Shown piece by piece: positions 1 through 11,577 of a DNA stretch of 11,577 nucleotides. The translations under genes were made by a program, and so were the position numbers. The DNA comes from Candidatus Sumerlaeales bacterium (GTDB lineage Bacteria; Sumerlaeota; Sumerlaeia; Sumerlaeales; Sumerlaeaceae), in NCBI GenBank assembly GCA_038243585.1, contig JBBSQY010000071.1, positions 1-11,577 of the forward strand. Direction: 5' to 3'. Numbering within the stretch: position 1 is the first letter of the stretch; each line of letters starts with the position of its first letter. The notes under the pieces were generated by a model that was not told where the DNA came from, did not search any database, and saw only the letters and a list, made by a program, of their open reading frames with translations.

Positions 1-754
1 GCAACGCCAGCGCATTATATCCGCCGTGGATAATCACTGCCGCCGCGATGTATGGCTCGGCCATCTGGGAATCAAACAGTCGCCCTTTTGCCACTGTTGC
101 TCGCCAGGCTGTGCGCAGGCCCAGCGCGCCTACCATTGTTGTGCCGACGTGTAACGCCACCGTCACCGTCCAGCGAAATTCCATAAGGTTTTCTCTGGCC
201 GCGTTGCTTAGCGATGACAAATAGACTCCGCCATAGACCAGGTTCTCGACCACCCCGAAAAGCAGCGCAGAAACACAGGCAGCGGCGATAATATGCCACC
301 CTTTTACGATGTACCACGGCTTCTTCTCCAGCAGAAAGAGCAGTCCCCCGAGCTTCATCATCTCTTCGACTACCGGCCCGGCCGCCACCATGTAAAGGAC
401 TCCGAAGAAGCCCTGGCTGCCGGCCGCCATCGTGCCCAGTACAGAAATTGGTCCCGCCAAAAGCGCACACAAAGAAACAACGCCCACCAGAACCATCGGC
501 GAAAGCCCAGCCCGCCGCTGATTGATTAGCTGAGACAGCTCCGTTTCTCCACTTTCGGACCTGTGAGCCGGCTCACTATAGACCGAATGCAGAATTTGCT
601 CCATGGCAGACTGGTCCGCGTTGTCGGCATCCGTCCGATTATACCTGTCCGGCATAGCATGTGGGCCCGGCAGCGGCGGCGGGCCCACAATGGGCCGCTC
701 TGGATCCGGCTGCATCCACGGTTCATCGAATACATTTCCGTTATCGCGTTTCAT
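1..754 (-). CDS. PrsW-family intramembrane glutamic/metallo-protease (3' end runs off the window; not in the ORF track)
   Basis: Manual translation from ATG 754 is open to the window edge (251 codons): MKRDNGNVFDEPW...GPVVEEMMKLGG...LLFGVVENLVY...FRWTVTVALHVG...AVIIHGGYNALAL. It contains the PrsW motifs EExxK (EE at nt 362-367), FxxxEN, R-x7-H and HxxYN (H at nt 26-28) among several hydrophobic segments. The start overlaps the upstream stop (ATGA, 751-754). Confidence 0.88.
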   Translation of the reverse strand, partial: MKRDNGNVFDEPWMQPDPERPIVGPPPLPGPHAMPDRYNRTDADNADQSAMEQILHSVYSEPAHRSESGETELSQLINQRRAGLSPMVLVGVVSLCALLAGPISVLGTMAAGSQGFFGVLYMVAAGPVVEEMMKLGGLLFLLEKKPWYIVKGWHIIAAACVSALLFGVVENLVYGGVYLSSLSNAARENLMEFRWTVTVALHVGTTMVGALGLRTAWRATVAKGRLFDSQMAEPYIAAAVIIHGGYNALAL

Positions 755-1224
755 TGCACGCGCATGGCGGTTCCGTAGGCATAGAGTTCCGCGCTGGAAG
801 CGGCGCGCCCCGGCCGATCCTGCATCATGGCCGTTTCCACACGCATGTTCCACACGATGTTGCACCCATGCTCGTCCGCCATGGTTTTCATGCGCACGAT
901 TGCCTCACGGCGCCCACGATCAAGAAGACGTTCGTACTCGCCCAGCCGTCCACCAATAATTTTTTTTAGCCCGCTTACGAAAACTTTATAGTAATCGTTA
1001 GCGACCACCACGGAACCGTAAACAAGCAGAGGTTCGGCGGTAACGGTCCACCCGCTTGGCAGACTTTTTATGTTTTCCACCCGAATATGGCTAAGGGCGG
1101 ATTCGCGCTCCAACAATCGCTCCAGGTGCCGGCGCTCCACGCTTCGTCCGATAAAAAAGAAAAAAATCAACATAACCACAGGAAACGCAAACTGTGTAAT
1201 TGCGCCAATCGCTTCGCTGGTCAT
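751..1224 (-). CDS. YbjQ/UPF0145-family (putative heavy-metal-binding) protein with an N-terminal transmembrane anchor
   Basis: 157 aa. N-terminal hydrophobic helix FAFPVVMLIFFFFIG followed by a basic/charged linker. The C-terminal domain GSVV...KKIIGGRLGEYERLLDRGRREAIVRM...NMRVET...AELYAYGTA aligns by eye with the adjacent YbjQ protein. Confidence 0.88.
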   Translation of the reverse strand: MTSEAIGAITQFAFPVVMLIFFFFIGRSVERRHLERLLERESALSHIRVENIKSLPSGWTVTAEPLLVYGSVVVANDYYKVFVSGLKKIIGGRLGEYERLLDRGRREAIVRMKTMADEHGCNIVWNMRVETAMMQDRPGRAASSAELYAYGTAMRVQ

Positions 1225-1226
1225 GA

Positions 1227-1541
1227 TTAAATTAGCACCACGGCCGTGCCGTATACGTAAAGCTCTGCTGCGCCGGATGTCACGCTACTTGTGGCAAACC
1301 GCACATTTACCACAGCGTTTGCGCCCAGTTGCCGCGCCTGGCTCATCATGCGCTCGGTGGCCTCACGCCGGGCATCCACCAGTAGCTCTGTGTAGCCTTT
1401 CAGTTCGCCGCCAAACATATTTTTGACCCCTGCCGCGATGTCACGACCGAGGTGCTTCGCCCGCACAGTGCTGCCTTGGACAAGCCCCTTGATCTCCATA
1501 ATCTCGCGCCCCGCCACATACTCCGTATTCACCACAATCAT
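1227..1541 (-). CDS. ybjQ: YbjQ/UPF0145-family protein
   Basis: 104 aa with typical family features: GLVQGSTVRAKHLGRDIAAGVKNMFGGELKGYTELL..AR.EA..RM...A..LGANAVVNVRF...AELYVYGTAV. SD GGAGAGG lies 9 nt upstream of the ATG. Confidence 0.93.
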   Translation of the reverse strand: MIVVNTEYVAGREIMEIKGLVQGSTVRAKHLGRDIAAGVKNMFGGELKGYTELLVDARREATERMMSQARQLGANAVVNVRFATSSVTSGAAELYVYGTAVVLI

Positions 1542-1549
1542 CGAGAATT

Positions 1550-1604
1550 GCCTCTCCGGTTTTTTTAGCAGATGTTAAATGACACTACTGCAAAAACCGG
1601 AGGC
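1550..1604 (-). promoter_or_regulatory. Inverted repeat covering the ybjQ ribosome-binding site
   Basis: CTCCGGTTTTT (1554-1564) is the perfect reverse complement of AAAAACCGGAG (1592-1602), extended by GCAG (1568-1571)/CTGC (1588-1591). The stem overlaps the minus-strand SD at 1551-1557. Confidence 0.45.
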
Positions 1605-1710
1605 GGCAGGCAACAGGAAATGTTAAGACCCCTGACAATCATCATGGGTACTGACGTTTTTTCATCTGCCTAATATGGATTAATTTCTGCTCTTTGTTTC
1701 AGGCAGCGTC

Positions 1711-4188
1711 TTAATCATAAAGCGACCACCCGATGGCTGCCGCGGGGGTCACAAACTGCGAATTAGTCGTGTACAGCAGGTCGGTGTCGGGTCCGTATGG
1801 ATTTGCATTGGCAAAAGGCGCAAAGAACCGCTGCCAGCCGACGACGACCATCCCGCGCGAAGCGGCCAGGGCCGGATATGTTTCGCCGATACCCGGATAG
1901 CCACTCTCTTCTGTGATACGCTCGGCGAGGCTCCAGGTCAGGCCGCCATCCTCGGAAGTCGCCATCTCAATACGGAAGTTGTGCCAGTACCCGTTCGTAT
2001 CGTTTTGCACGGGAGGTGCAATAAGCCGTTGCATCACAATCGCCCAACGCTGACCGCCAAGCCAGGTCAACTGCGGAAGCATGTATGCGGTGTTTACAAA
2101 ATTGTTAAGTGAAGGTCCCGTTTGAACCACAATTTCAGGCGACCAGGTTGCACCGTTATCCATCGACCGCCGCGACAAAACGTTTGCCACGAATCCTCCA
2201 TTGCCATCGGATTCCCCTTTTACGCTTGCCGCCAAAACGGTTCCGTTATGGTCCGATTTTATCTGTAATTGCTGCCAGAATTGAACTTGCTGATAATTGG
2301 GATTAAGGGTCCAGGTGATTCCATCGTCAGAAGAAACGTAGAGTTTATTACCAGCTGTCATTATGAACCAGGATGACTCACCGCTATATATCAGCTGATA
2401 AGCGTCAGATGAGAATGTCTCCGTAGCGGTTGTCCATGTTTGGCCTGCGTCCGTTGACCGGCTGATGTAAGTAGTAGCGTCCTGGGGCCGATTCGACGCA
2501 ATTATCACGGTACCTTCGCCATTCGCATCCAGCGGCGTATACCCGCCAAGGCCAAAAAGAAGAACCTGTGGGAGACTCCACGTTAGAGCGTTGTCTGTAG
2601 AGACCGCATACAAGGTTACATGGGCATCATACGCCGGGTTCTCATCGGTTGCGTCCACAGGCACCGTGCCGTCCCACCACGCCAGCCATCGGCCATCACC
2701 ATTATAGATAATATTCGGTGTCCCGTCATTGCTGGTTTCGGTTTCGAAATCCGCCTGCAGAGGCTGCTGGAACGGAAATGTACGCCCATGATCGGTGGAA
2801 CGACCAACGATTATTTTTGTGCCTCCACCGACGACGGCGTTCCAAACTCCCACGACAGTGCCATTGTCGCCTCCGGCAAGGCGCAGATCTGAATCCTCCA
2901 TTCGAAGGAGATCAACTTCCGCTGCGGCATTAACATAAGCTGGGCTGTTCCAGGTGGTGCCGCCAGTGGCCAAGCGTGAAAATTGAATATCAAAGTCCGG
3001 CGCCAAGGCTCCGGGTAGCCTTACGTTCGTGTGATAAACAGCCATAAATCCGCCGTCGCCAGAGGGCATTGTCGCCACGCCCCCTTCGGTTGCGTCCGGC
3101 CGGTTTGATATCGGCTGTGCGGCGGTCCAGGTAGTTACAGCATCAGCGGAACGGTAAGTGATAACGTCATTGCCAGCGTCCATAGCAAGCAGCCACTCAT
3201 CATCATCGGCGGCAAGGGACATGCGGCTCGGCCTTGTCAGCGTTTCCGGAAACGATTGGGATTCGGTCCAGGATACCCCGCCATCGGTTGTGACCGCGAC
3301 GAAAGGCTGGTGATCAACCAATGGGTAGTCCGATTTTTTATAGGCGATGGCGGCCACGTCGCCCGTTGCAAAAATGTCTCCCAGCACCGCTTTCAATGGA
3401 GCAGCGCTTAAATAAATGGTTTTCCAGCTCTCCCAGTTATCACCGTTATCGGAAGACGCGGCCACGGAGAGGGATGTATTGTTAATATCAAAGCCATGGC
3501 TGAAGCGAGTGATCGCGTGGAACCATAGTCCGTTTCCGGCGGAGGCGATACCCGACTCAAGAGTGCCATTAAAAGCGTTTCCCGTGTCTACAAAGGGGGG
3601 AGCCGTATAGGTCCACGTATTGCCATAGTCCGAAGATCGAAGCAACGCGGACTCGAAAGTCGCAATGACGTTTCCAGATCTATCGGACGCAATTTCCATA
3701 TCATAATCGTTTAATGAGCTGACGCTTCGTTCGTAAATGGAACCACTATACGGAATGACGGACGGTGACCAGTTTACTCCGTTATTCGTGGAATGGGATA
3801 CATGGGCGGTGGTCTCTGTAGTGCCTTCGTCTGACGTCGCCCACATAGCCAGCCAAAAGTTGTTTCCGGCAAAAGTAATATCTGCAGCTATGATCCGAGG
3901 CGATACCGCGTCACCGGGCAAGGCGATAGGCTGCCAGGTTTCGCCGAAATCAGCGCTGCGGCCGCCAGCTAAGCCGCCGCCAGCCTTTTTCCACAGTGAA
4001 ACCATCGTACCGGAACTGTCGGTATCCACTCTCGGGTAAGTTTCATTATTGTCAACATTGTCGACGAAAGCATAGGCATTAAGAATTTCAGGCGGAGTCC
4101 AAAAGGAGTCTTGGCTGAAAGCCTGTGTATTTGTAATGACGCAAAAAGTAAGAGCGACGGAAATCCGTAAAAGGTGATTGAGAAGCAT
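1711..4188 (-). CDS. Secreted BNR/Asp-box repeat (sialidase-like) tandem beta-propeller protein
   Basis: Start revised from 4248 to ATG 4188 (GAGGGA just upstream; signal peptide MLLNHLLRISVALTFCVITNTQAFS), giving 825 aa. About 13 Asp-box-like motifs, e.g. SADFGETW, STNNGVNW, SSDYGNTW, SSDNGDNW, TTDGGVSW, STDHGRTF, STDAGQTW, SDDGITW, SMDNGATW, SEDGGLTW. Ends AAAIGWSLYD. Confidence 0.85.
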   Translation of the reverse strand: MLLNHLLRISVALTFCVITNTQAFSQDSFWTPPEILNAYAFVDNVDNNETYPRVDTDSSGTMVSLWKKAGGGLAGGRSADFGETWQPIALPGDAVSPRIIAADITFAGNNFWLAMWATSDEGTTETTAHVSHSTNNGVNWSPSVIPYSGSIYERSVSSLNDYDMEIASDRSGNVIATFESALLRSSDYGNTWTYTAPPFVDTGNAFNGTLESGIASAGNGLWFHAITRFSHGFDINNTSLSVAASSDNGDNWESWKTIYLSAAPLKAVLGDIFATGDVAAIAYKKSDYPLVDHQPFVAVTTDGGVSWTESQSFPETLTRPSRMSLAADDDEWLLAMDAGNDVITYRSADAVTTWTAAQPISNRPDATEGGVATMPSGDGGFMAVYHTNVRLPGALAPDFDIQFSRLATGGTTWNSPAYVNAAAEVDLLRMEDSDLRLAGGDNGTVVGVWNAVVGGGTKIIVGRSTDHGRTFPFQQPLQADFETETSNDGTPNIIYNGDGRWLAWWDGTVPVDATDENPAYDAHVTLYAVSTDNALTWSLPQVLLFGLGGYTPLDANGEGTVIIASNRPQDATTYISRSTDAGQTWTTATETFSSDAYQLIYSGESSWFIMTAGNKLYVSSDDGITWTLNPNYQQVQFWQQLQIKSDHNGTVLAASVKGESDGNGGFVANVLSRRSMDNGATWSPEIVVQTGPSLNNFVNTAYMLPQLTWLGGQRWAIVMQRLIAPPVQNDTNGYWHNFRIEMATSEDGGLTWSLAERITEESGYPGIGETYPALAASRGMVVVGWQRFFAPFANANPYGPDTDLLYTTNSQFVTPAAAIGWSLYD

Positions 4189-4376
4189 TATTCCCTCGCA
4201 AATATTAAACAGTGTAGCGGCAGAATCCGGCCTCTGAGCAATTAGCATAGGACTAAAACAATATTTTGCCTACTACCCGCGGCGAAAGCGCCAACTTATG
4301 TGTTCTTAAATTTTAAAAGGCGGAGGGGGCACGGAGTTAAATTAGGGCCTGGCTGCCGTGGGAACAACAGATATTT

Positions 4377-4417
4377 AAAAGCGGTAGCTAGAGGGATAAA
4401 ACCCGACCTGCTACCGC
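4377..4417 (-). terminator. Probable intrinsic terminator after the dienelactone hydrolase gene
   Basis: GCGGTAGC (4381-4388)/GCTACCGC (4410-4417) 8-bp stem with inner GGG/CCC pairing, followed on the minus strand by TTTTAAAT. It lies about 80 nt past the stop at 4496. Confidence 0.5.
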
Positions 4418-4495
4418 AGTCAAATTTGCTGGTCTGTTTGTTTTGGGAATTCTCTCGGTTGCTGACGGCTTGTGAGCCATTCCTGCACGAAAAAT

Positions 4496-5296
4496 TTATT
4501 TTTCGCCAGTCGCAACAAAATCTGGAAACAATTCACCGAAGAAATCCTGCATTTCGGCCCATGAGCGCCGATCCGCTTTTTCGTTGTAAGCTACGCCTTT
4601 GGATGGATCGTTACCCGCGTCGGGATTCGTAAACGCATGGACCGCATGGCCGTAGGCGACCATGTACCAGTCAGCTTTGGCCTGGTTTAACTCGTCTCTA
4701 AGGGCAGCCAAAGACTCGTCCGAAACATGGGGATCAGCCGACCCGTGAAGCACCAGCACTTTTGGCTGGATCGTCGGGCTGGTAGGAACTTCGCCAATTT
4801 CGAGACCGCCATGAAAACTGACCACGCCCAGCACGTCGGAATTGGATCGCGCCAATTCAAGCACCGTGGTGCCGCCGAAGCAGAATCCGATGGCGGCGGT
4901 TTGCGCGCCATTGACGTTCGGCTGCGCTTTTAGCTGTTCCAGCGCGGCATTGACTCGCCGGCGCATCAGCGCACGGTCGCCTTTTACCTGGCCAGACCAT
5001 TCCCCGGCTTCGGCGGCGTCTTTTGTCACACGGCCTTCGCCATACATATCCGCCACAAATGCAACGTAGCCCATATCGGCCAACATGGCGGCGCGGCTGG
5101 TCACGTAATCATTAACGCCCCAGTATTCTGGAATAACCAGCACACCGGGCCGCTTTTCCGCCCGGTCCGAATCGACCGCCAAAACGCCTTTGTAGCTGGC
5201 GCCGTCGATTTTATACTCAACCACACTGGTCGTGGTTTTGGCCGAAACTGATGCTGTGATGGCCACACCGGTGGCAAATAATAGAAAGCGTTTCAT
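4496..5296 (-). CDS. Dienelactone hydrolase family protein (alpha/beta hydrolase), with signal peptide
   Basis: Start revised to ATG 5296 (AGGAG SD upstream), 266 aa. Motifs PGVLVIPEYWG, GYVAFVADMYG, nucleophile elbow GFCFGG, SFHG, LHGSADP and HAFTNP give the Cys-Asp-His triad. The N-terminus MKRFLLFATGVAITASVSA looks like a Sec signal peptide. Confidence 0.93.
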   Translation of the reverse strand: MKRFLLFATGVAITASVSAKTTTSVVEYKIDGASYKGVLAVDSDRAEKRPGVLVIPEYWGVNDYVTSRAAMLADMGYVAFVADMYGEGRVTKDAAEAGEWSGQVKGDRALMRRRVNAALEQLKAQPNVNGAQTAAIGFCFGGTTVLELARSNSDVLGVVSFHGGLEIGEVPTSPTIQPKVLVLHGSADPHVSDESLAALRDELNQAKADWYMVAYGHAVHAFTNPDAGNDPSKGVAYNEKADRRSWAEMQDFFGELFPDFVATGEK

Positions 5297-5378
5297 GGTT
5301 TTGATCTCCTGGGGAAGTTGCAATTTGCGGATACTTTACTAACGGTGTAGCCATTGGCATTCCCGTTTGCAGGGTATT

Positions 5379-5406
5379 TTATAGAAAATCGTTATAGAAA
5401 ATAACG
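5379..5406. promoter_or_regulatory. Candidate operator in the divergent promoter region
   Basis: Direct repeat TTATAGAAAAT at 5379-5389 and 5392-5402, overlapped by the inverted repeat CGTTAT-N5-ATAACG (5390-5406). Confidence 0.35.
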
Positions 5407-5544
5407 GATCCCTTCAAATTCCAGGCGCGCTTTTCCCCTTAAGTCTTTTAAACGGGTCGGAATGCCATTCCGGGCTTTAGTGAAAAATTTCTTGAGCCAA
5501 CGAAAAGCCTGCGGCCTTAGTGCTTCCAATATAAAGGACGCGCC

Positions 5545-7098
5545 ATGACTGAACTTCACTCCCAAGATACTGATTCCGAAGGCATGCTGAGCGCCGGCGA
5601 AGAGCGCTTTGACCGCCTCCGCAGGCTTACCGGGCTATGGCTCGGGCCATTGCTATTCGCGCTTCTGCTGCTTTTTCCTGTCCAGGGGGTAAGCCCGGAG
5701 GCGGCCAGGCTGGCTGCAATCCTTGCGCTCACGCTGGTGTGGTGGATGTGCGAGCCGATACCGATTCCGGTCACGGCCATTCTGGCGCCGGCCTTGTGCG
5801 TGGTATTTGGAATTGCGCCGGCGAAAGAACTTCTGGCGTCCTTTGGTGATCCCATCGTTTTTCTGTTTATCGGTGGGTTTATTCTGGCGGAGGCCATGAT
5901 GGTGCACGGTCTCGACCGCCGCATTGCGCTGGGCCTGCTGGGACTGGACTGGGTCGGCAACAGCATCGCCAGGGTATTCCTGGTGTTTGGCGGCATAGCG
6001 ATGTTCCTGAGCATGTGGCTGAGCAACACAGCCACGGTGGCAATGATGGCGCCTATCGGCCTCGGGATCATCGCTGAAATGCGCGAACTATTTGATCGGC
6101 AGAAGACTCCGGAATCGCACGCGGATCATCTTAAAGTAGCCACCGGCCTGATGTTGATTCTGGCATACGGTGCCAGCGTGGGCGGCATTGCGACGCCCAT
6201 TGGCACACCGCCAAACCTGATAGGCATCGGCCTGATTCGTCAGACGCTGGACATGGATATTTCGTTTGCCCGCTGGATGATGTTTGCCCTGCCCGCGACA
6301 TTGGCAATGTTCGGGATATTGTATGCGGTCATCCTCATTATGTACAAGCCAAAGACCGGCGCGATTGAAGGACTGAAAGAATACCTCGGCGAGCGAAAAG
6401 CAGGACTAGGCCATTGGACAAGGGGCCAGGTAAATACCCTTGTGGCATTTTTTACAGCGGTAATCTTATGGACCCTACCGGGGCTGTTGGCTCTTTTGCC
6501 GGGCGAGACCGTGCGGCGCGTGGCCGATAAATATGGCGACGTGATGCCGGAGGGCATAGTGGCTGTGCTGGCGGCGTCGATGCTATTTTTGCTGCCGGTC
6601 AACATACGCCGGGGCGAATTTACGATTACGTGGAAACAGGCGGTGCGGATCGACTGGGGCACGATTCTGCTTTTCGGTGGCGGCATCGCCCTCGGCAAAC
6701 TGGCGTTCAACACGGGCCTGGCGAGCGAAATCGGCGAGTCTATCCTGAAAGGCACAAACGTTTCCAGCCTTGGAATGATCACGCTCATGGCGATTATTTT
6801 CGGAATTCTCATCAGCGAAACCACCAGCAACACGGCCTCAGCGACGATGGTAGTTCCCGTAGCGATAAGCGTGGCCATGGCCGCCGGGGTTGATCCCCTG
6901 CCGCCAGCGCTGGGCGCCTGCATGGGAGCCAGCTTCGGTTTTATGCTACCAGTATCCACCCCGCCAAACGCCATCGTTTACGGCACAGGCTATGTCCCGA
7001 TCACAAAAATGGTCAAAACTGGAATCATCTTCGACATACTAGGAGCCGCAGTAATTTGGGCAACAGTAATGCTAGGCAGCGAAATTTTTAAACGGTAA
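5545..7098 (+). CDS. DASS/SLC13-family sodium-coupled anion (dicarboxylate/sulfate) symporter
   Basis: 517 aa, highly hydrophobic. WWMCEPIPIPVT, two SNT motifs (WLSNTAT, TSNTASA), TPIGTPPN, FMLPVSTPPNAIVYG and IDWGTILLFGGG are all characteristic of the family. SD-like AAAGGA upstream. Confidence 0.95.
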   Translation: MTELHSQDTDSEGMLSAGEERFDRLRRLTGLWLGPLLFALLLLFPVQGVSPEAARLAAILALTLVWWMCEPIPIPVTAILAPALCVVFGIAPAKELLASFGDPIVFLFIGGFILAEAMMVHGLDRRIALGLLGLDWVGNSIARVFLVFGGIAMFLSMWLSNTATVAMMAPIGLGIIAEMRELFDRQKTPESHADHLKVATGLMLILAYGASVGGIATPIGTPPNLIGIGLIRQTLDMDISFARWMMFALPATLAMFGILYAVILIMYKPKTGAIEGLKEYLGERKAGLGHWTRGQVNTLVAFFTAVILWTLPGLLALLPGETVRRVADKYGDVMPEGIVAVLAASMLFLLPVNIRRGEFTITWKQAVRIDWGTILLFGGGIALGKLAFNTGLASEIGESILKGTNVSSLGMITLMAIIFGILISETTSNTASATMVVPVAISVAMAAGVDPLPPALGACMGASFGFMLPVSTPPNAIVYGTGYVPITKMVKTGIIFDILGAAVIWATVMLGSEIFKR

Positions 7099-7205
7099 TT
7101 TCCAACGCAACCAATAAAAGATAATTGCCGACGCAGCCTTTAACGATAATTTTCCCCCGCAGTCGTTAACGCTGATTTTCGGCGCAGCCGAGGAAGTTTA
7201 AATAC

Positions 7206-7260
7206 GAACGGGAGCTTCTTCCCCGTTCTTAGTTGCTTTTGCTTTTGCTTTTCTTGCTTT
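7206..7260 (+). terminator. Probable intrinsic terminator between convergent genes
   Basis: GAACGGG (7206-7212)/CCCGTTC (7222-7228) stem followed by a long T-rich tract. Confidence 0.5.
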
Positions 7261-7293
7261 TTTGCAGTTCTTTGTGCCTTTGCGTCTTTGTGT
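7233..7293. repeat. Short tandem repeats: (TTGCTT)x3-4 and (CTTTGYGY)x3
   Basis: TTGCTT at 7233, 7239, 7245 and 7254. CTTTGTGC-CTTTGCGT-CTTTGTGT at 7270-7293. Confidence 0.7.
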
Positions 7294-7307
7294 CAAATTC
7301 GTCTAGT

Positions 7308-8189
7308 CTATACTTCACCCCGCACTTTCCGCTGAATCCCTTCCCTGAAGGAGATAGGTTCGAATCCTAGCTCTCGCCGCGCACTGCTAATATCAAAATC
7401 CTTATTCTCTTCCATGCGCCGAATTTGATCCATCCGGACCCTGGGATGGCGCACAAGTTTTTCATACAGCGAAACCAGCGGCCTTGCCGCCGCCAGCGGC
7501 ACCGGCACCAGTCGCGTCTTCAGACTAGCCTCTTCAATCATAATCTCCAGCATATTGCTGTAGGTTATGGCCTCCGGTCCCGCGATAGTGTACGCTCTGC
7601 CCGCTGTCTCCGGACGCTCCAACGCCGCGATAAGTGCCGCAACCACATCCCACGTAAACACCGGCTGCCACAGCATCTTGCCCCCGGCGGGCAGCGGAAA
7701 CACCGGCCACTTTTTCAGCGTCGCGAGAAGCGGTTCAAGATTGCGATCCTGCAGGCCACCGTAAATCATCGTGGGGCGGATGATCGTCCATTCCAGCCCG
7801 GAAGCCTCGACAGCCTGCTCCCCCGCCATCACCTGCCGGGCAGTCTCCTCAACAAAACGAGTATAACGTCGCGTGGAAGACATAAAAACCCCGCGCGCTA
7901 CGCCGGCGGACTTCATGGCCGCAATGATCGCAGAAGCCAGTTTGATATGAGTAACAGCAACCACTGCCCCGCATCCCTTGACAGCCTCGTGTGCGGTTTC
8001 TGAACTAAGCAGATCGCCCCTGCACACTTCGACCCGACGGCGTAGCCCAATATCCACTCTGGCGGGATCCCGCGTAAGAATTCGCACGGGATAACCCGCA
8101 TCTAATAGCGCTGAAACAAGCCGGCTGCCCGTATGTCCGGAAGCTCCGGCAATAAGCACGGGAAGTTGGCTGGATGATTGATTAGTCAT
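7308..8189 (-). CDS. NAD(P)-binding atypical SDR / NAD-dependent epimerase-dehydratase family protein
   Basis: 293 aa. Rossmann motif VLIAGASGHTG, followed by GDL, FMSS, EQAVEASGLEWTIIRPTMIYG, QPVFTWDV and ARRELGFEP. Confidence 0.9.
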   Translation of the reverse strand: MTNQSSSQLPVLIAGASGHTGSRLVSALLDAGYPVRILTRDPARVDIGLRRRVEVCRGDLLSSETAHEAVKGCGAVVAVTHIKLASAIIAAMKSAGVARGVFMSSTRRYTRFVEETARQVMAGEQAVEASGLEWTIIRPTMIYGGLQDRNLEPLLATLKKWPVFPLPAGGKMLWQPVFTWDVVAALIAALERPETAGRAYTIAGPEAITYSNMLEIMIEEASLKTRLVPVPLAAARPLVSLYEKLVRHPRVRMDQIRRMEENKDFDISSARRELGFEPISFREGIQRKVRGEV

Positions 8190-8365
8190 AGATTATGGAA
8201 AACGAATGCAGCCTGCGAAATGTTCTATTTAAACGAGAGATTGTCTCCGTGACATATTTCCTTAAAGAAAGTTTCGCGTATTTTCATTTTAATTGGAAAA
8301 TTGTATTGACCGAGGGGTCCTGCTGGCGCAGGTATTGCGCGAGTGTTGTAGGAGGAATAGGTAAT

Positions 8366-8662
8366 ATGTTTGGAAGAATCGTAAAAATAGCTGTTACCGC
8401 CACTGCTGCTGCCGTCTTGCTGGCCGGCTGTCAGAGTGGCATGCGTGGATCTCAGGTGTTCGCCGGATTCAATGGTGACCCTCAATGCGCGCCAGGCCCG
8501 AAACCGTGCCCGCGCGAGTATCCAGAGTTTCCGTTGCCGCCAGGCGGCCCGTATCTGCAGACCCCAGGCTATGCGCCACAGCCTGGTCCCCAGAGCGCAC
8601 CGCCCACCCGGTTGAACCTGAACACCGGTTCCGGCTCGGACAAGCTAACCGTCGCAAAATAA
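8366..8662 (+). CDS. Small proline-rich lipoprotein, function unknown
   Basis: Start revised from 8195 to ATG 8366 (AGGAGG at 8350-8355), 98 aa. Signal peptide MFGRIVKIAVTATAAAVLLAG-C with an LAGC lipobox. The mature part is Pro/Gly-rich with two Cys, and a strong terminator follows. Confidence 0.8.
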   Translation: MFGRIVKIAVTATAAAVLLAGCQSGMRGSQVFAGFNGDPQCAPGPKPCPREYPEFPLPPGGPYLQTPGYAPQPGPQSAPPTRLNLNTGSGSDKLTVAK

Positions 8663-8674
8663 CGCGAGCGGTTT

Positions 8675-8718
8675 AAAAAGTATCCCCGTCACTTTTACCG
8701 GTGACGGGGATTTTTTTT
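8675..8718 (+). terminator. Intrinsic terminator, possibly bidirectional
   Basis: Perfect 11-bp stem ATCCCCGTCAC (8682-8692)/GTGACGGGGAT (8701-8711), T-run to 8718 and A-run at 8675-8679. It lies between convergent genes. Confidence 0.88.
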
Positions 8719-8727
8719 GTTCAGCGT

Positions 8728-8782
8728 TGCCCGGAGGGCTCACGATGGATGCGACTTGAAGTCGCTTTCAATGTGCCCGGAG
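8728..8782. repeat. REP-like palindrome flanked by 9-bp direct repeats
   Basis: GCGACTT-G-AAGTCGC (8751-8765) lies between TGCCCGGAG copies at 8728-8736 and 8774-8782. Confidence 0.45.
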
Positions 8783-8878
8783 CCAGCCTGTAATTTTTTA
8801 TCCGGTCGTTTACGCAGCCACGCTTCCCCCCGTTCCTTTTCTGTTTCGCAGCGTGATTACCGTAGCCGTATTTCTCGA

Positions 8879-9955
8879 CTAATTTGCGAAATTTGCCCAG
8901 GCGTCCGTGCCGGCGGGAATAGGTGTACCGGCGGTCAACGTGACAATGGTGCTGAAGATCCCGCCGCCGCTCGATACAAATTCCGAACCGCCGTTGCTGT
9001 TTGAGGTGTTTTTTACGCAGATCGAGTTTGAAACGCCCACCAGCCCGTGCCCGGTGTTGTTGGAAACGTGGTTTTCTTCCACACGACAGGATTGTTCTGC
9101 GTAGATACCGTCGGTGACGTTGTTGGAACAACTGTTGTTTTTAACTACTGACTGAAGTGTTCTTATGCCCTGTTTCCCGTTGCCGTCACATTGGTTGTTC
9201 TCAATTGTGCAATGCTCCCCGGTCCTAATCCCGTCGGCGCCATTAGAGACAGAAAGGTTATCTTTAACTATAGATTTTGCGTCGACATTGATGCCAAAAC
9301 CACCATTCTCGAAGCAGTGATTGTTCACAACGAAACAGTTAGATGCGGAGAAAGCAGCTATTCCATCACCGACATTGTGACTGACAACGCAGTTGGAGAT
9401 GGTCCCCCGGCCGTTTGTTATCCCGGTCTTAATGGAGATCCCTGCATATTGATTGTAGCTCGCGCGACAGTTGCGCACATCGCCGTTTCGTATGTTGATA
9501 CCAAAGGAGCAGTTCACGGCGTTGATGTTTTCCACAACGCTCTCGTGGCCGTGCAGGTCGATCCCGATAGCGGGCCAGTCCGTGACAGTTCCGTTTCTTA
9601 CAATCACACTCGTTGTAGCCGCATCAAGACAATGGATGCCCTGCCCGTCACCTCCACCGCCTGGGGCATCAAGTCCCGGACCCCGTAGCGTGAACCCGTT
9701 CAGATCGATCACCACATTGCTCACCAGAATATCAATGGCCCCGTCGCCTTCCCCCAGCGTCGCATTTCCGGTCAGATAGTAACTGCCGGGCTCAGAAATG
9801 TCTATGGGAAGATCCACGGGGCGGATAGGGATGCGGGCTTCCACCTCGTCCAAAGTCCTCATTGTTGGGCCCGGAGCACCGGGCGGTGTGAGGCTGCCTG
9901 CGGCTACCGGAGCGACAGCCAGACTAAACATTAAAAAAGTAAAAATGTGGTTCAT
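8879..9955 (-). CDS. Secreted right-handed parallel beta-helix repeat protein
   Basis: 358 aa. Signal peptide, then GSLTPPGAPGPTMRTLDEVEAR, ISEPGSYYLTGN, V.IDLNGFTL.G and IVRNGTV, then approximately 22-aa N-x-x-x-G-I coils (HNVGDGI, ENGGFGI, SNGADGI, GNGKQGI, NNVTDGI, NNTGHGL). Ends AWANFAN. Confidence 0.9.
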   Translation of the reverse strand: MNHIFTFLMFSLAVAPVAAGSLTPPGAPGPTMRTLDEVEARIPIRPVDLPIDISEPGSYYLTGNATLGEGDGAIDILVSNVVIDLNGFTLRGPGLDAPGGGGDGQGIHCLDAATTSVIVRNGTVTDWPAIGIDLHGHESVVENINAVNCSFGINIRNGDVRNCRASYNQYAGISIKTGITNGRGTISNCVVSHNVGDGIAAFSASNCFVVNNHCFENGGFGINVDAKSIVKDNLSVSNGADGIRTGEHCTIENNQCDGNGKQGIRTLQSVVKNNSCSNNVTDGIYAEQSCRVEENHVSNNTGHGLVGVSNSICVKNTSNSNGGSEFVSSGGGIFSTIVTLTAGTPIPAGTDAWANFAN

Positions 9956-9981
9956 GACGCGACCTTTCGATAGGTGATTCG

Positions 9982-10515
9982 TTAGTGGAACAGATTCCAG
10001 TCATAGGCCCGGGTAAAGCCGGGAGCTTTTGCAACGTGGGCGGGGTCGACCGTATCAAAAGCGAGCCAACCGATATTTTCACCCCACGCGTAGCCGGAGA
10101 AGCGGCCGGTGGACTGGTCTATGTGAACGCGACCGCCGCCAGCAGGCGTTGTATCGAAAGCGATCCAGCCGACATTTTCGCCCCAGGCATAGCCGGAGAG
10201 GTTGCCCGAGAGGTCCATATTAACGCCAAAATCTTCACCGGAGGTGTTTGAGTATTGCCCGCCCGTCGTAAACCCGTCGCCGAAGTTTATCCAGCCGAAG
10301 TTCTCATGCCATGCGAAGCCGCCAAGATAGGTTCCGCCGACGTGAACGCCGTTTGCGATATCTCCCTGGAGGTTTAACCATCCGGCGTTCTCCATCCAGC
10401 CGTAGCGTTGGCCGGTGGCAGGCAGGTCAATATTGGTGGCAGCCGCAAAAGCGGCCTGTGCCGCTGCAAAGAGAGCGACAGATAATGCGAGGGAGCGGAA
10501 GCGTGAAAATGCCAT
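9982..10515 (-). CDS. Secreted protein with four W-x-E-N-x-G-W repeats, function unknown
   Basis: 177 aa. Signal peptide ending AAFA. Repeats YGWMENAGWLNL, FAWHENFGWINF, YAWGENVGWIAF and YAWGENIGWLAF. Ends TRAYDWNLFH. It lies 26 nt upstream of the beta-helix gene on the same strand. Confidence 0.85.
   Translation of the reverse strand: MAFSRFRSLALSVALFAAAQAAFAAATNIDLPATGQRYGWMENAGWLNLQGDIANGVHVGGTYLGGFAWHENFGWINFGDGFTTGGQYSNTSGEDFGVNMDLSGNLSGYAWGENVGWIAFDTTPAGGGRVHIDQSTGRFSGYAWGENIGWLAFDTVDPAHVAKAPGFTRAYDWNLFH
10052..10199. repeat. Intragenic 49-bp direct repeat (repeats 3 and 4 of the WxENxGW protein)
   Basis: 10052-10100 and 10151-10199 match at 42 of 49 positions, offset 99 nt (33 codons). 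Confidence 0.85.
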
Positions 10516-10944
10516 TGTGGAGTTCTCGCTTTAGAAAAGACAGACTGAGACGCACCTAAATGAAATCAGGCTACTTTTTAAACAAGTCGCGGAAAGGAGC
10601 TGTCATTGTCAACATAAAAGGGTTTCCTTTTTGTTTGGTCAGCCATTGAAGCGCGAGCCGCACCGTTACAACCGAAGCAGAATACCGCCGATGTTTCCGA
10701 CGGCTCAACGAGCTGTCGCGACCTCAGGAAAACGATGTATTCTTGTTTCTGCATCATTTGCCGCTGTTGCGGTATGTTTCGAACTTAGTCTACAGTAGTT
10801 CCACATCTGACGGGTTGCAGCGGAACCTCGCTGAGAAAATACTCTCAAACCAACAAATTTGATTGCCCGCGCCACCTGGGCTATTCATGTTTTAGGAAGA
10901 TACCACCAGCCAGGCCGGTTTGCCGGCACAGGAGTACCGATGTC

Positions 10945-11577
10945 ATGAGCGATACCAAAGATACTACGACGAAAACACCGACGCACGATCCGGACACCGC
11001 CGCGCAAAAAGTGCCCGGATCAGGTAAGCCACAAACGACGCCCCCCGGTGGTAACGGCAGCGGCAATGCGCCGCTAAAGCGAGTGTTGCCGGAAGGCGAA
11101 AGCGCGCAAACCCTGAAACATAATGTATCGTCACAAAATCTGGTGGGCGGCGACGAACTCTTAGACGCGCTGGCCGAAAATATGGGCTATGAGCGGGCTA
11201 ACCTAAAGGACCTAAAGGTTACGCCGGAACTCGTCAAACAGATCGATGCGAAACATGCCATAAAATACCGGGTGTTTCCAGTGCGCTTCGAAGGCGAGGA
11301 TCTCTATCTGGCCCTGGCTGATCCACTTAACATCCAGACCACAGATGACCTCGAACGCATCTACCACAAGCGCATCCACCCGATGGTGGCTGACCAGCTT
11401 GAGGTCGACAAGTTTATTAATCACTATTATGAGAGCAGCAACATCGCCGATATCTATGGCGGCATGGCTGATGACGCCGTCGCGGCGGAACACAAGGATA
11501 CAGAAGACGACCAATACGCCGCGGTAGATCTGAAAGAAAACAAGACGGATCAGCCGCCAGCCGTAAAGTATGTCGAC
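10945..11577 (+). CDS. GspE/PulE/PilB-family type II secretion / type IV pilus assembly ATPase, N-terminal part (runs off the window; not in the ORF track)
   Basis: Open from ATG 10945 to the window end (211 codons), with AGGAG at 10930-10934. LLDALAENMGYERANL...ELVKQIDAKHAIKYRVFPV...LYLALADPLNIQTTDDL...IHPMVA....VDKFINHYY matches the T2SSE N-terminal domain, and QPPAVKYVD matches the 'APxVxxV' start of the N2 domain. The Walker motifs are outside the window. Confidence 0.87.
   Translation, partial: MSDTKDTTTKTPTHDPDTAAQKVPGSGKPQTTPPGGNGSGNAPLKRVLPEGESAQTLKHNVSSQNLVGGDELLDALAENMGYERANLKDLKVTPELVKQIDAKHAIKYRVFPVRFEGEDLYLALADPLNIQTTDDLERIYHKRIHPMVADQLEVDKFINHYYESSNIADIYGGMADDAVAAEHKDTEDDQYAAVDLKENKTDQPPAVKYVD

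Follow-up and report, generated by a model that had tools for sequence, protein, structure and literature searches.

Two described systems come closest to the element analyzed here. In secretion by the type IX system (T9SS), PorU cuts the C-terminal domain (CTD) of its cargo at sites of the form X/(GSA)(VLI), in which Asp is a frequent P4' residue (PMC4560394, Table 2), with PT/GI as a further mapped site (PMC11969387). The last 6-12 residues of PilC/PilY1 dock on a pilin tip as a beta-strand (PMC13533445) and show a conserved Trp followed by hydrophobic residues (PMC13711793). The element in question is a C-terminal tail of about ten residues, first noticed on two secreted proteins encoded in an 11,577-nucleotide stretch of DNA from a Candidatus Sumerlaeales bacterium (contig JBBSQY010000071.1, positions 1 to 11,577; hereafter the window). 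We conclude with high confidence that this tail is a genuine sorting tag, shared by two phyla and apparently not yet catalogued.

A C-terminal tail shared by unrelated, mostly predicted secreted proteins

The source assembly (GCA_038243585.1, or G000; 3.43 Mb, 99 contigs, 90% complete) yielded 2639 genes with a simple hexamer caller, and tail membership was assigned with an iterated matrix at a leave-one-out score of at least 8 bits. The tail, [STA]-x-[VAI]-x-D-W-x-L-[YF]-(x)-stop, closes 82 of these genes, or about 3% of the proteins, against 0.57 expected from its internal rate. The first-pass annotation, which had proposed a sorting signal from the two window copies, had left room for a motif at background frequency; the enrichment at the terminus is instead strong, with W-x-[LIVM]-[YF] ending at the last residue in 45 genes and at the second-last in 31, and a mean of 0.38 per offset further in. 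Among the 82 members the consensus is [S40/A20/T19]-[A23/S21/D10/G10]-[V50/A21/I9]-x-D51-W80-x-L55-[Y70/F12], and the aromatic is followed directly by the stop in 49, by one residue in 32 and by two in 1; two further copies in this genome run on for 4-6 residues. The Ala at -8 that had been taken as defining proved too narrow, since the residue three before the Trp is Val in 50 of the 82 and Ala in only 21, and the Pro-containing linker described before the tail is common without being required. Stripped of their tails, the 82 bodies fall into 44 unrelated sequence clusters, so that the tail is indeed common to non-homologous proteins. Families found on 27 scanned tail proteins include Asp-box, ELWxxDGT, lamin-tail, golvesin, M23, nuclease, deacetylase, PQQ and FAD enzymes and DUF1501, and several of the 27 are familyless.

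In the window, both tails lie on the minus strand where they had first been placed, together with the following features:

1711..1743, minus strand: tail copy 1, A-A-A-I-G-W-S-L-Y-D-stop, read from the sequence (16.6 bits leave-one-out; Trp codon 1726-1728)
between codons 1741-1743 and 1738-1740, minus strand: predicted PorU-type cut in tail copy 1, placed by the register test described below
1711..4248, minus strand: cargo 1, a secreted BNR/Asp-box repeat protein of 825-845 aa (PF13088, PF15902, PF02012)
9982..10014, minus strand: tail copy 2, T-R-A-Y-D-W-N-L-F-H-stop, read from the sequence (9.6 bits leave-one-out; Trp codon 9997-9999)
9982..10515, minus strand: cargo 2, a secreted 177-aa WxENxGW-repeat protein; a passenger domain whose tails differ between phyla
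8879..9955, minus strand: secreted beta-helix protein ending D-A-W-A-N-F-A-N (PF13229; 1.5 bits)

Cargo 1 measures 845 aa from the first ATG and 825 aa in the protein database. Both window tails are atypical, copy 2 ranking 81st of the 82 by leave-one-out bits.

Signal peptides, judged by a loose and a stricter heuristic rather than by SignalP, are enriched among tailed proteins: 63 of 82 pass the stricter test against 733 of the 2557 other genes (66 of 82 against 787 of 2557 by the loose one), and both window proteins, for which Sec signal peptides had been claimed, pass the stricter. Eight of the 19 tailed genes that fail it were inspected, and three lie at contig ends, four have an upstream frameshift or stop, and one has an upstream hydrophobic stretch. 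Membrane segments beyond residue 60 occur in none of the 82 tailed proteins as compared with 474 of the 2557 others. Ranking a pool of 1551 proteins by extracellular-like composition places 74 of its 79 tailed members in the top 150, and Lys is scarce in the cargo (0.021 versus 0.045). A link to the lipobox was not significant (0/82 tailed versus 32/787, p 0.06).

The tail exchanges with other C-terminal signals on homologues. Within the class, six of seven relatives of cargo 2 carry it and the seventh has a dockerin-like end, with one more tailed relative found separately; the orthologue from the same genus ends A-A-N-D-W-N-L-F-E, and a paralogue in the source genome has a different end. Among 80 loci with cargo 2 homologues from all phyla, two belong to Sumerlaeota and both are tailed, while of the other 78, ten extend past the edge of the locus and W-x-L-[YF] is absent from the 68 ends that can be seen. 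We take the ends found elsewhere to be dockerin-like, T9SS-like, IPTL-like, YLP-like and others. In the case of a different cargo, the tail is present on 55 of the 57 closest homologues and on one of the next 63, the non-tailed ones ending in PF18962, PF13860, PF00404, PF22359 or nothing, and the five distant homologues of cargo 1 are tailless, three of them ending in a membrane helix and basic residues. Because the slot is occupied on homologues elsewhere by tails of dockerin-like, T9SS, FlgD or membrane type, where the first-pass annotation had suggested looking for dockerin and T9SS tails, the element behaves as an exchangeable tag. The same comparison speaks against an integral last strand of each fold, as homologues and the paralogue lack the tail and it falls outside the confident part of the cargo 2 model. 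That model is a beta-rich, small soluble domain (pLDDT 87), confident to about residue 130, and the alignment is shallow where the tail lies. Cargo 2 has no Pfam or NCBIfam match, its fold matches nothing in the PDB at E<=0.001, and an atlas search returned only unnamed clusters, below 0.9.

For the taxonomic range we used a DNA pattern calibrated on the source genome, where 46 of 48 matches are true and 46 of the 82 members are caught. It gave 846 matches over 75 Sumerlaeota genomes against 157 for the reversed control, with 42 of the 75 above the highest control. A second phylum, entered via a record labeled Ca. Omnitrophota, gave 862 against 118 over 35 genomes, and thus the tail is at home in Sumerlaeota as suggested without being confined to it. 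We take this second phylum to be OLB16/Hinthialibacterota. Counts were at background in a neighboring phylum labeled Hydrogenedentes (132 versus 116 in the control, 51 genomes) and in a mixed set of 47 genomes (126 versus 102). Where counts are low inside Sumerlaeota, variant tails are part of the reason, such as S-L-x-V-x-R-W-x-x-Y-R and A-x-A-W-E-x-[FY]-[RH] in samples from families f8 and f3. Two Sedimentisphaerales homologues (L069, L072) end in a dockerin-like domain followed by a faintly tail-like D-[DG]-W-x-L, with genome pattern counts at background.

The tail appears to be new, with no existing sorting-signal model matching it: 25 tails gave no NCBIfam match at E<=10, none of these models fell on the tail in 27 complete proteins, Pfam gives no match to the tail, and a tail profile finds nothing among PDB sequences. 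No paper describing it was found in a literature mostly without subscription journals and with supplements excluded. A look-up of the term 'C-terminal' gave nothing in PMC8092238 or PMC9324843, the second being a weak negative because all six terms gave nothing there. The earlier suggestion of an export or surface-docking tag is thus supported by the signal peptides, the exchange of tails, the 44 clusters and the lack of membrane segments.

Other short ends were seen in the same genome. Two secreted proteins (C12:56144-57676 and C12:57824-59389) end A-G-I-D-x-S-E-W-M-L-M-Q, a long-spaced variant that the matrix missed. A second short tail class, approximately V-P-V-x-L-S-x-F-x-x-[ED]-stop, occurs on secreted-type proteins including the paralogue of cargo 2 (C8:4290-7676, C65:4582-5547, C84:40-576, C84:639-1160, C9:50406-51071 and C29:12825-13361; G023 L232, L233 and L238). 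In the window, none of the other seven called genes exceeds 1.5 bits, in line with the claim that its remaining proteins lack the tail, and the beta-helix protein at 8879-9955 was rejected as a member at that score despite its similar-looking end. Beta-helix proteins starting S/G-L-T-P-P-x-x-P adjoin WxENxGW genes twice, here and at C29:10570-12648. A PilB/GspE-type ATPase gene (MshEN domain) begins within 10945-11577, divergent from cargo 2, and is truncated where the contig stops. Judging by sequence look, 751-1224 and 1227-1541 are presumably two YbjQ-like heavy-metal-binding genes and 2-865 a PrsW-like membrane protease frame. An Rfam scan of the window returned nothing, nor did a search for 16S in the source genome.

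Front half, C25 enzymes and a possible PorU-like cut

We tentatively read the tail, with somewhat less than even confidence, as a two-part sorting tag whose front half would be cut by a PorU-like C25 transpeptidase and joined to a surface glycan. Cargo would very probably cross the inner membrane by Sec or Tat, and the tail would, with the same high probability, act as a sorting or anchoring signal. The outer membrane may be crossed via type II/type IV filament machinery, a step that we regard as evenly balanced, with the D-W-x-L-Y end as the putative recognition or export handle. The C25 enzyme would cleave between Trp-5 and Trp-4 and transpeptidate, for which the prospect is just short of even, and the acceptor would by analogy be a glycan resembling lipopolysaccharide (LPS).

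The front half is what suggests such a cut. Scored with a count matrix built from 17 mapped PorU sites, the tails reach +1.9 bits when P1 is placed at Trp-5, and the remaining 26 shifts give -3.3 to -8.1; a strict [GSA][VLI] match occurs at that register in 37 of the 82 tails and in at most eight at any other, the true column order ranks first of 120 permutations, and 48% of tails reach 1.9 bits as compared with 3.3% of body 5-mers. In 21 tails of the second phylum, P1 is Val or Thr in 20 and P1' is Ser, Ala, Gly or Asp in 17, the search pattern having left both positions free. Among 57 orthologues of one cargo the front half precedes the Trp by five (20), six (8), seven (14) or four (2) residues, with 11 lacking a front match and two being fragments, and this variable spacing indicates that the two halves are separable.

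Candidate enzymes are present almost throughout. The source genome encodes three C25 proteins that have signal peptides, lack the tail and match PorU models best, two of them carrying CARDB domains. The top PDB match of the family profile is PorU (6za2, E 6e-38), and the catalytic His845/Cys884 are invariant in 109 of 109 sequences. C25 was found in 73 of 75 Sumerlaeota genomes and all 35 of the second phylum, the two misses being 71% and 58% complete; a PorU-like C25 with intact His/Cys occurs in 108 of the 110 genomes. As a separate observation on the genomes behind loci L018-L096, C25 is present in six of six whose WxENxGW protein has a short linear or PTAV-type tail, against six of 23 with dockerin-like ends, a contrast that is not independent because the dockerin-like set comes mostly from one phylum. 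In four second-phylum C25 loci, a downstream gene is presumably TPR-like, by eye.

Filament machinery accompanies these enzymes. Secretins and Omp85 occur in five of five genomes, and the source genome holds three secretin genes, a type II secretion-like operon on C45, 43 pilin-like genes and several minor-pilin operons. PorV (PF19572) was found in none of five genomes, its positive control being detected, and SprA (PF14349) in none of five with a silent control. One secretin is unusually long (C32:28553-33631, 1692 aa), with long secretin frames likewise in G006 and G025. An expanded pilin-like family with a C-terminal Y-D-x-T-N-G-T (YDxTNG pilins) has 25 genes in the source genome (for example C33:9825-10433 and C11:9209-9871) and is found in 75 of 75 Sumerlaeota genomes, with at most 77 pattern matches per genome.

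A paired absence helps to choose between protease and pilins. In genus g18, comprising G021 (one contig, 96% complete) and G035, each genome has one weak C25 match (E 2e-32 and 9e-35, where all other 71 positives reach 2e-54 or better), neither matches a PorU-like query, and both tail patterns stand at background; the absence of an orthologue is that seen in C25 profile and PorU-like query searches. Sampling of 503 genes in G021 (800 kb, 13%) gave no tail where 15.6 were expected. Both genomes keep YDxTNG pilins (20 and 13 matches), so that the joint lack of tail and PorU-like orthologue favors the protease over these pilins. In some extracellular-like proteins of G021 (L174:12528-13784, L192:10538-12994 and L164:2208-8771), P-S/P-x-hydrophobic x3-[HR] stands at the C-terminus or close to it; this may be a tail that replaces the Trp tail, and the end of L024 resembles it.

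Several points weigh against a PorU-like cut. The likeness to mapped sites is low in information, and it had been noticed before the test was made. The runner-up column permutation scores 1.57, the mean score is reached by just 39 of the 82 tails, P2' is frequently Ala (21 of 82), and P1' is Arg in window copy 2. The three C25 enzymes of the source genome score 160-186 against a PorU cut-off of 420 bits, and C25 also occurs in 30 of 51 genomes of the tailless neighboring phylum and 23 of 47 others (53 of 98 together). No conserved partner gene stands beside C25 genes at 20 loci, where the context is housekeeping-like apart from the TPR-like neighbor mentioned above. The negative for SprA comes with a silent control and a source genome 90% complete. 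The g18 loss is a single event, and two other genomes of that family, G039 and G031, retain the enzyme while their tail counts stand at background, none of 18 sampled G031 genes being tailed. A pilin-like gene directly adjoins 10 of the 82 tail genes, mostly on the same strand, as compared with 17 of 567 other genes of secreted type (p 8e-4), an adjacency that cutting by C25 does not need and that co-regulation would also produce. A complex prediction pairing the C8-type C25 region (residues 405-1000, 108 rows) with a tail of 30 residues (25 rows) scored 0.00 with controls not folded, and it counts neither for nor against the cut.

Possible docking and other ways to read the tail

Despite these points, PorU-like cutting is the best single mechanism, and docking on a pilin tip comes next. 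According to this second possibility, which we consider unlikely, the tail would remain uncut and bind as a beta-strand to a pilin or pseudopilin tip as in PilC/PilY1, whose last 6-12 residues do so with a Trp followed by hydrophobics (PMC13533445, PMC13711793), allowing filaments to export or display many cargos. The pilin adjacency and the abundance of pilin, secretin and minor-pilin genes in the source genome fit such docking. So does a tailed protein (C47:7635-8516; L149) that combines a GspG-like globular domain with a TIG domain and has a signal peptide but no prepilin N-terminus. Set against this, 72 of the 82 tail genes have no adjacent pilin, g18 has YDxTNG pilins without the tail, the GspK-like protein of the source genome appears to end in a Trp-containing strand of its own, and docking leaves the conserved front half unexplained. 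Tail counts do not track YDxTNG counts, and a one-to-one pairing of the two is unsupported (rho 0.08, p 0.48 over 75 genomes), a test that is weak because variant tails are missed; the motif is rare in the second phylum as well (at most two matches in 34 of 35 genomes), where a variant could escape. Docking is compatible with PorU-like cutting as the reader of the Trp end, and the two can be combined. In its fullest form, which we regard as unlikely to hold in every part, PorU-type covalent anchoring would operate without a type IX machine in the two phyla, the Trp end taking the tag out via type II/type IV filament machinery and the front half then being cut and linked to a glycan, and orphan C25 proteins may serve other short tails across many phyla.

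Alternatively, export may not depend on the tail, which would then act as a non-covalent anchor, akin to a miniature dockerin, and bind a scaffold at the surface, an S-layer or a component of the outer membrane. We think this improbable, somewhat more so than pilin docking. The tail does replace dockerin-like ends on homologues, even inside the two phyla (L009, L020; PF00404), its two invariant aromatics would suit a binding pocket, and cohesin-like proteins occur in four of five Sumerlaeota genomes, with two secreted paralogues in the source genome (C6:68922-70445 and C17:18345-19787). The same slot also holds cleaved T9SS signals, however, so that slot exchange does not favor docking, and the tail-rich G018 (27 matches) gave no cohesin match, which weakens the case for cohesin as the reader. 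Ten residues are in addition too few for a dockerin, and a repeated scaffold protein was not found.

PDZ-type proteins recognize free aromatic C-termini, and a periplasmic handle for a chaperone or a C-terminus-reading protease, acting in folding control, retention or turnover, would suit some cargo families whose members may reside in the periplasm (a PQQ dehydrogenase, an FAD oxidoreductase and two DUF1501 proteins of Tat type). This we judge very improbable, given that homologues carry surface-sorting tails in the slot, that the low-Lys cargo dominates the extracellular-like class, and that a few copies have 3-6 extra residues past the aromatic. The possibility of chance, or of a last strand integral to every fold, which the mere two and atypical copies in the window might suggest, is effectively refuted by the count over expectation, the 44 clusters, the tailless homologues and paralogue, and a tail that lies outside the confident model, albeit over a shallow alignment.

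Whatever its reader, the tail singles out, from sequence alone, the enzymes that two uncultured phyla would secrete or carry at their surface. Should the tail be cut in PorU-like fashion, sortase anchoring in Gram-negative bacteria is separable from type IX secretion and orphan C25 proteins gain a testable role. If the pilin reading is true, it provides a linear signal for export by type II/type IV filaments, for which the choice of substrate has long been open.

Comparison with described sorting signals

Tripartite signals (LPxTG, PEP-CTERM, GlyGly-CTERM, IPTL-CTERM) share the slot on homologues (L035, P0115, P0241, P0243, P0244), and the IPTL signature likewise shows aliphatic-x-acidic-Trp, but they consist of a membrane helix and basic tail, found in 0 of 82 tails. 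Dockerin (PF00404), the partner of cohesin (PF00963), is the commonest alternative end on WxENxGW homologues, and cohesin-like proteins exist in these genomes, yet the tail has no calcium loops or helices, is far too short and gives no PF00404 match. Unlike cargo of the BAM beta-signal, the 27 scanned tail proteins are soluble domains or familyless, with no barrel family. Closer in kind are sort_motif_YLP (NF050076) and ultrashort_CTERM (NF053834), very short, helix-free C-terminal motifs on unrelated secreted proteins whose mechanism is unknown; their sequences differ, and neither matches the source genome above cut-off or on the tails.

PilC/PilY1 and MshQ share with the tail about ten terminal residues, a conserved Trp followed by hydrophobics, Sec-exported carriers and a pilin-rich genome, an apparent resemblance of the back half that was tested after it had been noticed. 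The differences are that the tail is not limited to one or two propeller adhesins but sits on 82 unrelated cargos, has an acidic residue before the Trp, Tyr/Phe at +3 and an extra conserved front half, and does not conserve the R-E after the Trp. The PilY1 propeller (PF05567) was found neither on the 27 tail proteins nor in five genomes, with a silent control.

The type A CTD of T9SS and PorU (PF18962; NF033707; PDB 6za2; PMC4560394, PMC11969387) resemble the present system in several respects. Both have a C-terminal signal on cargo bearing signal peptides, in the same slot on homologues, both appear to place a small-small-aliphatic-x-acidic motif in the linker directly after the last domain, and both are accompanied by C25 enzymes with a His/Cys dyad and a PorU-like N-terminal region. 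They differ in that the tail is ten residues long rather than a folded domain of 43-80, has no B/D/E motifs and matches no CTD model, while PorV and, with a silent control, SprA were not found and the C25 enzymes fall below PorU cut-offs, two having CARDB. A possible origin of the tail in a T9SS domain cut short where its Y-P-N-P begins was weighed and set aside as speculation only. The tail would work like a minimal T9SS signal, yet it is not a member of T9SS.

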